Assembly: GCA_945876945.1 (NCBI GenBank)
Contig: CAMCQE010000003.1
Coordinates: forward strand, 5,446 to 69,445
Reading direction: 5' to 3'
DNA: 64,000 nucleotides
DNA from: Klebsiella pneumoniae
GTDB lineage: Bacteria > Pseudomonadota > Gammaproteobacteria > Ga0077536
The notes below the pieces were generated by a model. That model searched no databases. It was not told the origin of the DNA and saw nothing but the letters and a program-made list of their open reading frames with translations. This document shows, piece after piece, positions 1,823-6,815 of this stretch. The first letter of the stretch is position 1; every line of letters starts with the position of its first letter. The translations under genes were made by a program, and so were the position numbers.

Positions 1823-1921
1823 GACTGCCTTCCGGGGGCCCTTAGTCTAGAGCCCTAAAGGCACCGCCGAAACCATCAATGTGGGCAGCAATGCCGAAAA
1901 ATCGATCGGCTGGCGCCCGGC

Positions 1922-2992
1922 GTGCAAATGCGCGACCGTATGTGCCTTTTTTGGCGTCCGGTTTGCCCGGAGGAGGCGCTGGTGGATTGTATTCAGGACA
2001 TCGAAGTCGAAAGCCTCGGCCATGGCGGCTGGCGGCTGGGCTGGCAACCAAACTTCAGCGCCCGAGCGGTGGCGGTGTATTGGGGGACTCAGCCGGACGC
2101 TATCGACCCAACTGCACTCGTCAGTGGCGCGCACGGCACGGCCGAGTTGAGGCTGCCCGCAGCTTGCGTGCGCCCCTATTTCGAACTCGTCGCCGAGGAC
2201 GGTGCCCGGATCGTGGTAGCCGAGCGTCAGGTGCCGCTGGAGGGAGGGGTTAACTTCAGGGATTTGGGCGGTTACCAGACTCGCCACGGCACCCGGTTGC
2301 GGTGGGGTAAGTTGTTTCGCTCAGGCCATATGTCTCGCCTGACGGCGGCCGACCAGACTTTGTTGACGGCGCTGGGCATTCGGACAGTCTGCGATTTCCG
2401 GATGGCCGAAGAGCGCGCGAACGAAAACGCCACCCTCAGCTGTGAGCCCACGCTGGAAACCCTGGGAATTCCGCCCGGCCTCAAGGACCGCTTTTTCCTC
2501 CATCGCCTGTTTGAACAGACCGATGACCCGGAGGTGGTGGTGGAGGCGATGCACGAGATCATGCGCTCGCTGATTCTCGAGTGCGCCCCGCACTACGCGC
2601 GGCTGTTTGACGCGCTGTTAGGGGCCGCCGACGGCAGCGTCCTGATGAACTGTTCTGCGGGCAAGGAGCGGACCGGCGTGGGGGCGGCACTGCTCCTCCT
2701 CGCCCTCGGTGTTCCGCGCACCACCATCCTGTACGATTTCGCGCTCTCGCGACGCTATTTCCCGGCAGCTTCCGAATTGCCGCGGGCGCGCGAGAAGTAC
2801 AATGTTCAGGAACGACCCGGCCGCGATGTGGAAGCGCTGATGGCGCCGCTGCTCTTCACGCGCGAGTCGTATCTGGAAGCCGTGTTCGGTGTGATCGACG
2901 AGCGCTACGGCGACGACGACAGCTTTCTGCGGCAAGCAATGGGCGTGGGTGAGCCAGAGCGGGCTCGTCTGCGTGATCGCTTCACGTCTTGA
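1922..2992 (+). CDS. Protein-tyrosine/dual-specificity phosphatase-like protein (Y_phosphatase3-type) with about 110-aa N-terminal extension
   Basis: CX5R P-loop NCSAGKERTG. The NFRDLGG motif typical of the start of the catalytic domain of this family is present. The true start is uncertain; several Met codons lie at 1922-1940. Confidence 0.7.
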   Translation: MQMRDRMCLFWRPVCPEEALVDCIQDIEVESLGHGGWRLGWQPNFSARAVAVYWGTQPDAIDPTALVSGAHGTAELRLPAACVRPYFELVAEDGARIVVAERQVPLEGGVNFRDLGGYQTRHGTRLRWGKLFRSGHMSRLTAADQTLLTALGIRTVCDFRMAEERANENATLSCEPTLETLGIPPGLKDRFFLHRLFEQTDDPEVVVEAMHEIMRSLILECAPHYARLFDALLGAADGSVLMNCSAGKERTGVGAALLLLALGVPRTTILYDFALSRRYFPAASELPRAREKYNVQERPGRDVEALMAPLLFTRESYLEAVFGVIDERYGDDDSFLRQAMGVGEPERARLRDRFTS

Positions 2993-3010
2993 AGGGAGAG
3001 ACGACAAACT

Positions 3011-3748
3011 ATGAGCACGCTGTACAGCGATAACGATAAATACGCATGGCAATCGACGTTCGCAATCGTCGAGGCATACAACGCAGCCGTGAAAGATCTG
3101 GTGCGCCAGCGCTTCGCCGAATTTGCCGGCGAGTGGAACGACTTCGTTGCCGGTCCAGCCTACGACGTGATTACCAAAGCCGACATCGCGGCGATCGAAG
3201 CGAAACTGCTGGCCAACGGCTACCGCTTTGAGCCCTCTGCCATGTCTTCGGCGGCCGAGCGCCCGCATGCCTATCGTGACTCCGGGGTGAATCTCGCGGA
3301 CTTTTCGTTCGAGCATCCTGCCGCGCCCACCGCCGAACCGGATGGCGAAGGGCGCGAACTGCGCGGTGTGGGCGATAACGTGGTCTCCCGCAAGACCGAC
3401 CTCATCGGCATCGCCCGCTACGTGCGTACGAGTGACAAGGTGCTCGAGTACCTCACGCAGGGCGTCCCGCCCAATACCATCGCGGTGGTTGAAGACTCCG
3501 GCGGCACGCTCACCGCGCCGGTGTTGGAGAAATTTACGGGCGTTCTTTGCGCGGGCGGCACGACGCGTTCGCACCTTGCAATTCTCACCCGGGAATACGG
3601 CATTCCCTGCCTGATGAACGCGCGCTTGTCGGGCATCCGCGACGGCGACAGGCTGATGCTTGAAGTCACCGCACGCGCCAAAACAGCCGACGACTACCAG
3701 ACCGGGGCCGACGTTTCTGCCCGTGTCTTTCGTCTGCCGCCAGCCTGA
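3011..3748 (+). CDS. Stand-alone PEP-utilising-enzyme mobile (phosphohistidine swivel) domain protein
   Basis: The C-terminal ~85 aa carry the swivel-domain signature AGGTTRSHLAILTREYGIPCLMN (compare GGxTSHAAIxAR..GIP in PpsA/PPDK/EI). The N-terminal ~150 aa are unassigned. SD-like GAAGGGAGAG sits just upstream of the ATG at 3011. Confidence 0.7.
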   Translation: MSTLYSDNDKYAWQSTFAIVEAYNAAVKDLVRQRFAEFAGEWNDFVAGPAYDVITKADIAAIEAKLLANGYRFEPSAMSSAAERPHAYRDSGVNLADFSFEHPAAPTAEPDGEGRELRGVGDNVVSRKTDLIGIARYVRTSDKVLEYLTQGVPPNTIAVVEDSGGTLTAPVLEKFTGVLCAGGTTRSHLAILTREYGIPCLMNARLSGIRDGDRLMLEVTARAKTADDYQTGADVSARVFRLPPA

Positions 3749-3770
3749 TTAGCGAGAAGGAATCGACATC

Positions 3771-5321
3771 ATGTCCGAACCGCAACTGACTTATGCCCAA
3801 CTGCTGGAAACCAATAACCTCATCCAGCAGAACGCCGATGAAACCTACTGGCTGTGCGCCACCCGCACGGTGCAGGAATCCAAAATCTTTCCGGTTTCTG
3901 CCTACATTCTGTTTTCCTATCTGAACTGCTGGTATCGCTATCCCGAACTGCTGCGCAAAATCGAGCGGCACATGTCGGCCGAGGAAATCGGCGATCGGGC
4001 ACGCAATCAGGGCATCAAGATTGTGGCCTGGTGTCTGCCCTGCTTTTATCTTCTGGGGCGCGAGATGCTCATCAACTGGGGGGTTATCACGCCGAGCGAC
4101 GGGGTGAAGGATCTCATCTACACGCTCGACTTCTGGAAGCGCTTCCAACTGTCCTGGCATCGGAACAACGGCAACCTGATTAACCGGCAGGCGGGCCATC
4201 GTGCCCAGGTGTTGCCCGAGCAGCGATTGCAGGTTTTCCACGCCGATGCGTTTGAGTGCCGTGACGGCGATCCCCTGCACAAGGCGGCGCAGTCGTTTCT
4301 GGCCGCTGCCGCCCAGTACGGATTTCTGGTGTCCTGCGAGAGCCGCCTGACGCTGCATAACCATGGTCCTTACCGGATTTCGGATAAACGCGAAATGCTG
4401 GTGCGCGACTTCCTCGAGCTCTCCGAATCAACGGTCCCCTGGCTCGACGGCGTCGGCGGCGAAATCCCCTACAACAACCTCACGGTGACCATGATTCTCG
4501 AGGGCTGCCACATCAACCTGCTGGACGATTGGGGCTCCTTCGAATCTGAACCGGAGATGCGTGCGGAACACATGGTGGGCGTTGGGTTGTATACCGCCGA
4601 CACGCTATCTGAAGGCCACATCCCGGTGGGCATGGGCAGCAAGGAAGAGTTAACCGCAACCTTTATCGACTTAACCGATCGCATCAAAAATGCGACCGCC
4701 GCCCTCTGGCGCGAAATGGCCGGCTGGACCCGCGATCAACAGCTTGATGCGGGCGCGATTACCTACTACGCCGTGATCCGTGAGTTCGCCCTGATCGCCG
4801 GTTGCTACGAGATGGAAGACTGGATGCTGATCGACGAACGTGCGGAGCGCTTCCGGCCCTTGCTGAACGATGAGTACGGCAATCTGTTCCTCGGCGAACT
4901 GGTTGGCTACATCAGTTCGCCCAGTCAGCGGATGCACGACTACACCATGATGCAGCACACCGATGCGCCCACCCGCTCGCTCTCCTATATCCCTTATTCC
5001 ATTTTGGAGGATGGCAACTACACGCCGTCCGTCGGGCCGATGCGTCCGGGTGACAGCTATTTGCCGCGCAAGAACGATCGGTACCGCACCACGCAGGGCG
5101 TGTTCAGTCTGGAAGAATTCATGCGCCGCTCGCGCGAGTTTGTGCCGCAGGTGTGCCAGCCACAGTATCGATACCTCTGCGCGGACTGGGTGAAATACAA
5201 CGCCCACACGCCGCTCGCCGAAGCCCTTTTCAAGCTTGAACAACAGCATTCTCGCGTGCTGAAAGACGCCGGCGCCGGGCTTCGTCGTGATGACGTAGAA
5301 ACTCGGCGCAACCAGACTTGA
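3771..5321 (+). CDS. Hypothetical protein, 516 aa, no recognisable family
   Basis: Long uninterrupted ORF with SD-like GAGAAGGAA before the ATG at 3771 and tight spacing to both neighbours. Trp/Tyr/Cys-rich, with no motif I can place. By eye it has more A/T at third positions than the flanking genes. Confidence 0.6.
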   Translation: MSEPQLTYAQLLETNNLIQQNADETYWLCATRTVQESKIFPVSAYILFSYLNCWYRYPELLRKIERHMSAEEIGDRARNQGIKIVAWCLPCFYLLGREMLINWGVITPSDGVKDLIYTLDFWKRFQLSWHRNNGNLINRQAGHRAQVLPEQRLQVFHADAFECRDGDPLHKAAQSFLAAAAQYGFLVSCESRLTLHNHGPYRISDKREMLVRDFLELSESTVPWLDGVGGEIPYNNLTVTMILEGCHINLLDDWGSFESEPEMRAEHMVGVGLYTADTLSEGHIPVGMGSKEELTATFIDLTDRIKNATAALWREMAGWTRDQQLDAGAITYYAVIREFALIAGCYEMEDWMLIDERAERFRPLLNDEYGNLFLGELVGYISSPSQRMHDYTMMQHTDAPTRSLSYIPYSILEDGNYTPSVGPMRPGDSYLPRKNDRYRTTQGVFSLEEFMRRSREFVPQVCQPQYRYLCADWVKYNAHTPLAEALFKLEQQHSRVLKDAGAGLRRDDVETRRNQT

Positions 5322-5334
5322 GTGGAGATGCCTC

Positions 5335-5940
5335 ATGAATAACGATTTGCACTGGGTGATGCACGGCGTTGCGATCCGCAAGCACGGGAGTGCGCATGAC
5401 ATCGCCGCTATTTGTGGCTTGCCCGAAGCGCGGGTAAACGAAGTGCTGGCTACCGCTGCTGCCGGCGGCAGAGTGGTGGAATCAGAGGGGCGTTATCTGC
5501 TGTCGCCCGCAGGCCAACTCATTCTGGCCAGTGATTACTCGCGCTTCTGCGGACCGCTACGCGCCAATGCTGGCTTTCATTCCGCGTATGAACGTTTCGA
5601 GCGGATAAACGTCGATCTAAAACAGCTCATTACGGATTGGCAGACGGTAGAGTTAGGTGGCAAACGCGTCCCCAACGACCACGCTGATGCCGCCTATGAC
5701 CGACGCATCATCGACCGCCTTGGCGACCTGCATGAACGCTTTGAGCCGATTCTTCGTGCCTTGGTGGCCGGCGCGTCTCGCTTGCGCGTGTATCAGGACA
5801 AACTGATGGCAGCGCTGGAGTCTGCGGAAGCGGGCGACGTGGCCGCGGTCAGCGATGCCCGCACCGACAGTTACCACACCGTATGGTTTGAACTGCATGA
5901 AGACCTGCTCCGTTTGATGGGGCGGCAGCGCGAAGAGTAA
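5335..5940 (+). CDS. Hypothetical protein, 201 aa, possible N-terminal winged-helix domain plus helical C-terminal domain
   Basis: GGAG lies 8 nt before the ATG at 5335. The N-terminal segment HGSAHDIAAICGLPEARVNEVLATAAAGGRVVESEGRYLLSPAG resembles a wHTH. No firm family assignment. Confidence 0.5.
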   Translation: MNNDLHWVMHGVAIRKHGSAHDIAAICGLPEARVNEVLATAAAGGRVVESEGRYLLSPAGQLILASDYSRFCGPLRANAGFHSAYERFERINVDLKQLITDWQTVELGGKRVPNDHADAAYDRRIIDRLGDLHERFEPILRALVAGASRLRVYQDKLMAALESAEAGDVAAVSDARTDSYHTVWFELHEDLLRLMGRQREE

Positions 5941-6010
5941 TCAATTAAAACGCCTGGCCGCTGGCGGGCGACGAACACCTGACTGAACTGGATTTGAAGG
6001 GGAATTAACG

Positions 6011-6793
6011 ATGGGTCGTCTGAACGGAAAGATTGCATTAATCACGGGCGCGGGCACCGGCATTGGACGGGCTTGCATGGTGATGTTTGCCAAAGAGGGT
6101 GCGACGGTGTTCGGGGTTTCCCGCACGCAGGGCAATCTGGATGAATCTTTGCGTCTGACCCATGCGGCTGGCGGACAGGGCAGCGTCTTCAGCGCGGATC
6201 TTTCGCAACCCGAACAGGTGGAAGCGGCGATTAATCAGTGCGTGGCGAGCTATGGTCGGATCGATATCCTGCTGAACGCTGCCGGGGTGGGGTACAACCT
6301 TCGCGAGACCAGCGAAGGCTCCATGGACCCGGTTCACAGCACGCCGATCGATAAATGGCGCGAGGTCATGGCGCTGAATCTGGATAGCGTGTTCTATGTC
6401 TCTCGTCTCGTGATTCGTCAGATGAAAACCCAAGCCAAGGGCGCCATCGTGAACGTGGCGAGTATCTTTGGCCTTGGCGGTGCGCCGGATGCCCATACCT
6501 ACACGGCGACCAAAGGCGCCATCATCAACCTCACCCGTTCCATGTCGGTGGCCTATGTCGACGACAACATCCGCTGCAACGTGGTGGCGCCGGGTTTTGT
6601 CGCAACGCAGATGGTGGAGAGCGTGATTCCGATGCTGTTCTCGGCAGAAAACCCCAAGCTGATCTCCCCGATGGGCCGGCCCGCAACGCCTGATGAAGTC
6701 GCCTACGCCTGTCTCTATCTGGCGTCCGACGAAGCCTCGTATTGCACTGGCAGCGTGCTCACGGTGGACGGCGGCTCGACCGCTCGCGCCTGA
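6011..6793 (+). CDS. SDR-family oxidoreductase
   Basis: Cofactor motif TGAGTGIGRA, catalytic YTATKGA and the NAAG motif. 260 aa, typical of a classical SDR. Confidence 0.85.
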   Translation: MGRLNGKIALITGAGTGIGRACMVMFAKEGATVFGVSRTQGNLDESLRLTHAAGGQGSVFSADLSQPEQVEAAINQCVASYGRIDILLNAAGVGYNLRETSEGSMDPVHSTPIDKWREVMALNLDSVFYVSRLVIRQMKTQAKGAIVNVASIFGLGGAPDAHTYTATKGAIINLTRSMSVAYVDDNIRCNVVAPGFVATQMVESVIPMLFSAENPKLISPMGRPATPDEVAYACLYLASDEASYCTGSVLTVDGGSTARA

Positions 6794-6815
6794 GCTCAAG
6801 CCTCCCACAGCCGCC

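Follow-up and report, generated by a model that had tools for sequence, protein, structure and literature searches.

The analyzed DNA, a stretch of 64,000 nucleotides from contig CAMCQE010000003.1 (hereafter the window), contains at 1900-6800 a unit of five genes, all located on the plus strand and separated by intergenic gaps of 18, 22, 13, and 70 nt. In this order, they encode a phosphatase of the Y_phosphatase3 family, a 245-aa protein with a phosphohistidine swivel domain, two unannotated proteins of 516 and 201 aa, and a short-chain dehydrogenase/reductase (SDR) (Table 1). The 245-aa swivel protein and its partners are the subject of this analysis. Shine-Dalgarno-like sites were found upstream of the 245-, 516-, and 201-aa genes, and the reading frame of the 245-aa protein begins with an ATG preceded by such a site, GGGAGAG. 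The true start of the phosphatase gene may lie downstream of position 1922. The source organism is a freshwater lake bacterium that occurs in many lake metagenomes.

Table 1. Features of the five-gene unit and its surroundings, and related genes at other loci (positions in the window unless a locus is named).
Feature	Start	End	Strand	Evidence or remark
Y_phosphatase3-family (CX5R) phosphatase	1922	2992	+	Gene 1 of the five-gene unit; Pfam PF13350, E 1.8e-59, residues 105-355
Cys244 of the phosphatase, within CSAGKERTG	2651
245-aa protein, predicted stand-alone swivel carrier	3011	3748	+	Pfam, homologue alignment, AlphaFold2, Foldseek
His188 codon (CAC), predicted phospho-accepting residue of GGTTRSH	3572	3574	+
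516-aa protein, unannotated family, proposed phosphoryl-acceptor/substrate-binding core	3771	5321	+
201-aa protein, winged-helix N-domain and helical bundle, proposed adaptor between core and truncated PPDK	5335	5940	+
Motif SYHTVWFELHED of the 201-aa protein	5869	5904
SDR	6011	6793	+	Last gene of the conserved unit; Pfam adh_short_C2, E 4e-56
Zn-ribbon NUDIX hydrolase	6693	7331		3' of SDR; longest frame overlaps the SDR end, likely start 6816
Alpha/beta hydrolase	7487	8467		3' of SDR
201-family gene of Mycobacterium branderi plasmid pJCM12687, locus L097	6584	7186		E 1.6e-37
DUF7064/DUF7065 protein, locus L082	2408	3322
DUF7064/DUF7065 protein, locus L083	6908	7996
DUF7064/DUF7065 protein, locus L090	2471	3616
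DUF7064/DUF7065 protein, locus L097	8969	9985

Judged from its sequence and model, the 245-aa protein is a real stand-alone phosphohistidine swivel carrier, in which His188 is predicted to be phosphorylated. The Pfam family PF00391 (PEP-utilizers, for phosphoenolpyruvate, PEP) matched residues 153-215 (E 3.4e-8; score 33.4 bits, gathering threshold 23.1). The motif AGGTTRSHLAILTREYGIPCLMN is present, and the segment G182-Y196, which includes GGTTRSH with His188 at its end, is invariant across 33 homologues of 67-88% overall identity. His188 aligns with the catalytic histidine position of enzyme I of the nitrogen phosphotransferase system (EI-Ntr), the nearest, albeit weak, sequence match of the swivel in the PDB (E 0.3). 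The AlphaFold2 model, with a predicted local distance difference test score (pLDDT) of 74.9, consists of helices at residues 17-68 and a beta/alpha domain at about 111-245; the linker between them (74-91; about 70-110 overall) is strongly conserved and modeled with low confidence. Foldseek matched the beta/alpha domain to swivel domains of rifampin phosphotransferase (RPH), pyruvate phosphate dikinase (PPDK), and pyruvate kinase with E values of 2e-5 to 9e-4, the best matches being the RPH structures 5fbu, 5fbt, 5fbs, and 5hv2.

The N-terminal part of the model had no Foldseek match at all. An ATP-grasp, PEP-binding, or kinase fold, considered for the N-terminal 150 aa, was rejected: this region holds about 50 residues of helices and the linker, and only the swivel part of the protein was matched. 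Since Pfam and Foldseek recognized the swivel domain alone, the 245-aa protein lacks an ATP-grasp, PEP-binding, or catalytic partner domain. With over 1,500 homologues of similar length (about 245 aa), the gene is a conserved one and not a fragment. The surroundings gave the same picture: tblastn detected no PPDK_N homologue anywhere in the window, and Pfam and NCBIfam revealed no PEP/pyruvate TIM barrel in the 245-, 516-, and 201-aa proteins or their neighbors. An earlier note, made from the letters of the window, had placed a swivel domain without a partner domain at the C-terminus of this protein and had seen neither an ATP-grasp domain nor a TIM barrel encoded nearby; the Pfam, tblastn, AlphaFold2, and Foldseek results agree with it in each respect.

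In a lake-water metatranscriptome (run X22), two 151-nt contigs matched the 245-aa gene with 0-1 mismatch, at 3191-3341 and 3539-3689, and one contig was located in mlaF (1606-1823). The former two are weak evidence for transcription of the 245-aa gene, as DNA carry-over is possible.

The association of the swivel with the neighboring genes was explored by scanning one genome per species, which gave 419 loci with a relative of the 516-aa protein; 80 of these loci were retrieved, and in all 80 the swivel gene is directly upstream of the 516 gene. Homologues of all three proteins come mostly from uncultured Gammaproteobacteria. The three families also occur fused to each other. Proteins of 722 aa unite the 516 and 201 families, the latter at the C-terminus; P0416, P0459, and P0491 have an N-terminal PEP-utilizers domain fused to a 516-like core; and Rhodococcus proteins of 542 and 577 aa are swivel-core fusions. 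On plasmid pROB02 of Rhodococcus opacus B4, a 793-aa protein annotated as “PEP-utilizing enzyme” (WP_043827458.1) combines the swivel (18-108), the core (228-548), and a 201-like part (608-789) in the gene order of the window, and a Y_phosphatase3 gene follows. That such fusions occur in other bacteria strongly indicates a joint function of the three window proteins as a unit. On the basis of linkage and fusion, the partners of the swivel are the two adjacent unannotated proteins, with the 201-aa protein as the third member. The suggestion of the earlier note that the adjacent 516-aa orphan might be the partner was borne out by the constant adjacency and by the swivel-core fusions of distant relatives, and extended by the 201-aa protein.

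The triple fusion of pROB02 (L084/L085) is surrounded by genes for a P450, a ferredoxin, a ferredoxin reductase, alcohol and aldehyde dehydrogenases, and a truncated PPDK. Two phosphotransferases resembling APH/ecdysteroid kinases are also encoded there, and the layout recalls the Cre cluster for 4-cresol phosphorylation, equipped with the new module.

The 516-aa protein had no match in Pfam, NCBIfam, or the PDB sequences. About 965 homologues were found, and a profile search of 1.8 billion representative proteins returned 510 clusters; the family amounts to about 1,000 sequences when clustered at 90% and to 510 clusters at 50%, and it occurs in no fewer than 419 species genomes. The clusters include distant relatives of about 380 aa, which match positions 13-357. 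Throughout the remote members of the family, R32, G96, R192, G199, P200, and G344 are invariant, and R97 is nearly so. The AlphaFold2 model of P0143, a natural 516+201 fusion 79% identical to the window protein (pLDDT 83.4; predicted template modeling score 0.76), had no match in the PDB at E<=1e-3 when searched with Foldseek. The weak matches obtained (E 0.04-0.4) were winged-helix domains and fell on the 201-aa part. No match to the rifampin (RIF)-binding domain of RPH appeared, although RPH was present in the library, and the profiles of the 516 family matched no PDB sequence.

Neither the 516-aa protein nor its Rhodococcus orthologue matched the NCBIfam model PRK08296. As a control, a CreH-like protein from a Rhodococcus ruber plasmid matched this model over its full length (E 0), and the 245-aa protein matched only profile positions 515-596. 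The hhalign comparison of the core family with the alpha subunits of the PpsA/CreH/AcvA type gave a probability of 0.6%. With Pfam, NCBIfam, PDB profiles, Foldseek, and hhalign all negative at the available sensitivity, the 516-aa protein was rejected as an ATP-grasp, TIM-barrel, or RIF-binding-type domain. Nor did Pfam and NCBIfam reveal in it the catalytic motif of any known family of lyases or isomerases. The earlier note had also considered that the genes might turn out to be a known split enzyme of the PpsA/PPDK type; the core showed no detectable relation to the acceptor domain of the known two-component dikinases or to any solved fold. No paper, family, or structure covering the 516- and 201-aa families was found in the literature, Pfam, NCBIfam, and the solved structures, and no paper on the swivel/516/201 gene combination was found in the literature. 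From these comparisons, the 516-aa family appears to be a further acceptor for swivel-histidine phosphotransfer, built from three proteins and having no structural relative. With a GC content of about 0.59, the swivel/516 region (3001-5500) lies below its flanking genes (0.62-0.645).

Two types of cluster can be distinguished among the 80 loci. Type 1, to which the window belongs, comprises the genes for Y_phosphatase3, swivel, 516, 201, and SDR, with variable flanks. The phosphatase gene precedes the swivel gene in nearly all type-1 loci, and the SDR gene (72-93% identity) follows the 201 gene in most of them; no ATP-grasp gene was found in the listed type-1 neighborhoods. Six type-1 loci (L014, L017, L021, L028, L032, and L034) carry a gene for a carboxyltransferase (CT) of the pyruvate-carboxylase-B/OadA type between 201 and SDR. 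This CT is 75-77% identical to that of type 2, and a biotin carboxyl carrier protein (BCCP) is also encoded in L028; the cluster type of the window is thus tied to a carboxylase as well. Type 2 is a paralogue with 61-66% identity, in which the genes for swivel, 516, (CoA ligase), and 201 are followed by one for a 580-aa protein with PPDK_N and PEP-utilizers domains; further genes encode BCCP, biotin carboxylase (BC), a CT of the pyruvate carboxylase (PYC)/OadA type, thiolase, and SDR. Among the 80 loci, both types were found together in 18 genomes, including the closed chromosomes OZ257136 and OZ244144. A metagenome-assembled genome (MAG) with a type-1 locus 94% identical to the window at the nucleotide level also has a type-2 locus (L001, L057).

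The NCBIfam model PRK05878, which describes a truncated PPDK lacking the PEP/pyruvate domain, matched the 580-aa protein with E 3.5e-231, and this protein keeps the histidine motif GG(A/S)TSH. The truncated PPDKs of the related clusters are 520-580 aa long, have a swivel of their own, and are encoded in all complete type-2 loci as well as in L083, L089, and L090; in L081, a PPDK_N gene comes directly after a swivel-core fusion. On plasmid pR8L1 of Rhodococcus sp. 008, the core, the swivel, a 201-like protein, a DUF7065 protein, and a truncated PPDK are encoded consecutively. A full cluster is present on plasmids of both R. pyridinivorans P23 and R. oxybenzonivorans S2-17 and codes for the swivel, a 525-aa protein, CoA ligase, a 202-aa protein, truncated PPDK, BCCP, BC, and CT, and then for an OB-fold protein, thiolase, Y_phosphatase3, and SRPBCC; the proteins of these two clusters are 40% to 58% identical to the query proteins. 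Separate regulators of the LuxR, TetR, and AraC types flank the Rhodococcus clusters. Other plasmid matches to PPDK, in Sphingobium, Azospirillum, Methylibium, and Aquabacterium, were set aside, their contexts being unrelated.

Immediately upstream of the full cluster, two Rhodococcus plasmids (L089, 486-2219; L090, 1-3616) encode a swivel-core fusion (577/542 aa), a core-like protein, and a DUF7065 protein; thus, these plasmids carry several such modules. In distant variants, DUF7064/DUF7065 proteins (PF23212/PF23213) are encoded beside swivel-core or truncated-PPDK genes, and, to judge from this gene order, they are a further uncharacterized accessory family of these systems.

The 201-aa protein also had no match in Pfam, NCBIfam, or the PDB sequences, and its homologues number more than 2,300. 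Conservation within the family is highest in the C-terminal motif SYHTVWFELHED and not in the helix-turn-helix. Foldseek indicated only the weak similarity to winged helix-turn-helix domains mentioned above, including non-DNA-binding N-terminal domains of methyltransferases; no profile match to a DNA-binding winged helix-turn-helix family was found in Pfam or NCBIfam, and the triple fusion of R. opacus B4 gave a sub-threshold match to TrmB. The gene immediately preceding that for the truncated PPDK is the 201 gene in both the type-2 and the Rhodococcus clusters. On plasmid pJCM12687 of M. branderi, a 200-aa gene after that for a truncated PPDK is a member of the 201 family (L097; Table 1) and shares the motif SYHTVWFELHE(D/E) with it, so its annotation as MarR is probably misleading. 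No 516-like core was found beside this M. branderi gene. The order of the two genes in M. branderi is that of vadK (rv1127c)-rv1126c, from which we infer that Rv1126c belongs to the 201 family. In Mycobacterium tuberculosis, VadK autophosphorylates on His422, and Rv1126c improves the solubility of VadK and co-purifies with it, 2 M NaCl being needed for their separation (PMC13400623). The gene order, the membership of the M. branderi protein, and this co-purification led us to propose that the 201-aa protein docks a truncated PPDK onto the core.

Among the closest known counterparts are the two-component phenolic dikinases PpsAB of Thauera/Azoarcus, CreHI of Corynebacterium glutamicum, HpeHI of Rhodococcus rhodochrous GD02, and AcvAB of Sphingobium SYK-6. 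In the Hpe/Acv pathways, the dikinase first phosphorylates the phenolic hydroxyl of acetovanillone or 4-hydroxyacetophenone (PMC9618137; bioRxiv 10.1101/2022.04.28.489975), and a biotin carboxylase then takes the phosphorylated aryl ketone only (PMC9618137). Later, a phosphatase strips the tag, followed by a CoA ligase and a cleavage step (PMC9618137; bioRxiv 10.1101/2022.04.28.489975). HpeH, composed of the acceptor domain and the swivel, operates with a separate ATP-grasp protein, and HpeH alone moves phosphate from 4-phosphoacetophenone to acetovanillone; in the known split dikinases, the alpha subunit consists of a RIF-binding-type domain followed by the swivel (PMC12167813).

The system described here would share with these enzymes the split architecture, phosphate being handed on by a swivel histidine from an ATP-grasp protein to a distinct substrate domain, and it shares the location in a catabolic cluster with a phosphatase; the related clusters further resemble Hpe/Acv in their CoA ligase, their thiolytic step, and their biotin carboxylase, which is homologous. 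The differences are several. The swivel is a separate 245-aa protein, or N-terminal in fusions, whereas it is C-terminal in the known enzymes (PRK08296), and a third protein, of 201 aa, would be needed. In addition, no stand-alone PPDK_N beta subunit of about 360-380 aa is encoded adjacently in the window, the ATP-grasp partner in the related clusters bears a second swivel, and the phosphatase is of the protein tyrosine phosphatase (PTP)-like PF13350 family and not of the HAD or HD type; HpeD/AcvF are of the HAD type. A canonical Acv/Hpe cluster on a Rhizobium plasmid encodes AcvA-like and AcvB-like proteins, BCCP, BC, CT, a HAD phosphatase, and acetoacetate-CoA ligase. In comparison with this cluster, the type-2 and Rhodococcus subunits showed identities of 49-50% for BC, 39-40% for CT, and 32-36% for BCCP. 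The related clusters have the Hpe/Acv layout with two components changed, namely a non-homologous acceptor module of the kinase and the PTP-like phosphatase. BC, BCCP, and PYC-type CT homologous to HpeCBA/AcvCDE are absent from the cluster of the window. A NUDIX gene also occurs in the canonical phenylphosphate cluster of Azoarcus KH32C (L093).

Other swivel enzymes were compared as well. RPH has the same swivel fold and the ATP-grasp to histidine to small-molecule logic that is proposed here; it unites ATP-grasp, RIF-binding, and swivel domains in a single chain, whereas here the domains are on separate proteins. PEP synthase and PPDK have a homologous swivel and partner ATP-grasp domain, and differ from the present system in having a TIM barrel and a single polypeptide. 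The ATP-side partner of the related clusters resembles VadK (Rv1127c) and PRK05878 in combining ATP-grasp and swivel without a PEP/pyruvate domain; unlike in the VadK system, no truncated PPDK is encoded in the window. The steroid 25-hydroxy kinase/dehydratase of Sterolibacterium was considered as a counterpart and dropped, as the source paper names no genes.

Taken together, the domain content, the gene linkage, the fusions, and the dissimilarity to known acceptor domains, which are direct results, make it probable, in our assessment, that the swivel, 516-, and 201-aa proteins form the acceptor half of a split dikinase in a catabolic route that phosphorylates, modifies, and dephosphorylates its substrate. 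The phosphotransfer itself and its direction, the adaptor role of the 201-aa protein, and the nature of the substrate are what we infer in the following scheme. A truncated PPDK of the PRK05878/VadK type, with ATP-grasp and its own swivel histidine, would be encoded elsewhere in the genome and charged by ATP. Straight from the ATP-grasp site, or else from histidine to histidine, the phosphoryl group would pass to His188 of the 245-aa carrier, with the 201-aa protein as a docking adaptor for the truncated PPDK. The carrier would then swivel onto the 516-aa core, where the conserved R32, R97, and R192 may hold the phosphoryl group, and the hydroxyl that is phosphorylated would be that of a small compound undergoing catabolism, most likely a phenolic or another hydroxy-ketone or alcohol. 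The Y_phosphatase3 enzyme encoded upstream, whose family accompanies the module both in Gammaproteobacteria and in two contexts of Rhodococcus, would later remove the tag, and the SDR would interconvert alcohol and ketone in the same route. PTP-type enzymes typically hydrolyze aryl phosphates, and so a phenolic substrate would fit. The unit of the window may tag a substrate different from that of type 2 or cooperate with the type-2 enzymes.

Several points weigh against this interpretation. No ATP-grasp gene is located in the window, and the truncated PPDK of this organism is deduced from its relatives; the MAG that holds L001 and L057 is only 94% identical to the window in nucleotides. No active site could be assigned in the 516-aa core, and the model is of low confidence in its most conserved segments (25-36 and 132-143). 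The 201-aa protein contains a winged helix, and in M. branderi a relative of it bears the annotation of a MarR regulator. VadK has been described as a regulator of methylcitrate-cycle enzymes and not as part of a metabolite kinase (PMC13400623). The truncated PPDK and the 245-aa protein together provide two swivel domains, and a simple dikinase model needs just one. The type-1 unit of the window has no carboxylase, so its role in a pathway is less clear than that of type 2. Finally, the support for the acceptor-half interpretation is computational, from sequence comparison and structure models.

A broader version of the scheme is possible, although we hold it only tentatively. The module would be one arm of an ATP-driven phosphorelay resembling the phosphotransferase system (PTS), in which a single truncated PPDK would act as a general charging enzyme that docks via the 201 adaptor and feeds dedicated free swivel carriers. 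To every carrier would belong an acceptor enzyme of its own, with a fold not represented in the PDB, and the lineage would have at least two arms, the five-gene unit of the window and the carboxylase-linked paralogue. The logic would be that of the PTS (Enzyme I to HPr to EIIA; DhaM) if the swivel of the truncated PPDK passes its phosphate to the 245-aa carrier in a His-to-His relay; unlike in the PTS, the donor would be ATP instead of PEP, and both carriers would be swivel domains, not HPr or EIIA folds.

An ATP-independent transphosphorylase was also considered, in which the swivel and the 516 core would move a phosphoryl group to the substrate from a phosphorylated intermediate, or from some other donor, for instance PEP via EI-type proteins. 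The type-1 unit would then need no ATP-grasp partner, which suits the lack of such a gene in the window and in the listed type-1 neighborhoods, and the separate swivel of the truncated PPDK would be accounted for. The phosphate exchange from 4-phosphoacetophenone to acetovanillone by HpeH alone (PMC12167813) is a precedent, and the faint resemblance of the swivel to EI-Ntr points the same way. However, the module adjoins a truncated PPDK or PPDK_N in four independent contexts, and the adjacent phosphatase argues for hydrolysis of the phosphate and not its recycling. We consider a transphosphorylase unlikely.

Similarly, we give little credence to the idea that the 516 core is not an acceptor site at all but a lyase, an isomerase, or an enzyme forming an enol phosphate on a ketone, switched or driven through its phosphorylation by the swivel carrier. 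In one version, enol phosphorylation of a methyl ketone would feed the pyruvate-carboxylase-type CT. Indeed, CTs of the pyruvate carboxylase B/OadA type act on enolizable ketones, the six type-1 loci named above insert one beside the module, SDR genes, whose products would yield ketones, accompany it, and the 516 fold resembles no acceptor domain known from kinases. However, the presumably dedicated phosphatase suggests a stable phosphoester that persists through later steps, as in the Hpe pathway (PMC9618137), rather than a transient enol phosphate; aryl phosphates are what the homologous carboxylase HpeCBA uses; and the Pfam and NCBIfam searches gave no known lyase or isomerase motif.

Least probable, in our view, is a regulatory phosphorelay that would sense or signal in the manner of VadK or the nitrogen PTS, for instance by acting on enzymes or on transcription via the 201-aa protein: its winged helix, the MarR annotation of the M. 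branderi relative that follows a VadK-like gene, and the reported regulation of methylcitrate-cycle enzymes by VadK through protein interactions (PMC13400623) would agree with it, but the 201 family is fused to the C-terminus of a large, very conserved, enzyme-like core, its strongest conservation lies in SYHTVWFELHED outside the helix-turn-helix, the genes stand with short gaps within catabolic operons between those for CoA ligase, carboxylase, and thiolase, and the Rhodococcus clusters have separate flanking regulators.

Downstream of the SDR gene, the window encodes a Zn-ribbon NUDIX hydrolase and an alpha/beta hydrolase (Table 1). Both genes are retained only in the closest relatives of the window (L001-L005 and L010), and they are therefore probably outside the conserved five-gene unit. 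Five MAG records with the same freshwater gammaproteobacterial gene order (L004, L018, L024, L026, and L036) are titled Klebsiella pneumoniae, Klebsiella sp., or Hydrogenophaga intermedia and look like mislabeled bins.

To our knowledge, only a few acceptors for swivel-histidine phosphotransfer are known, namely the PEP/pyruvate barrel, the RIF-binding type, and the PTS proteins. What is new here is a swivel-histidine dikinase chemistry that would operate with an unannotated three-protein acceptor module. For truncated PPDKs, a widespread group with a so far puzzling role, this provides a concrete candidate partner and function, and, if the relay interpretation is true, a role for VadK-Rv1126c in mycobacteria is suggested as well. 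The hypothesis can be tested directly in culture, since R. pyridinivorans P23 and R. oxybenzonivorans S2-17 have orthologous clusters on plasmids. If it is true, catabolism by phosphorylation, modification, and dephosphorylation would extend to abundant uncultured freshwater Gammaproteobacteria.

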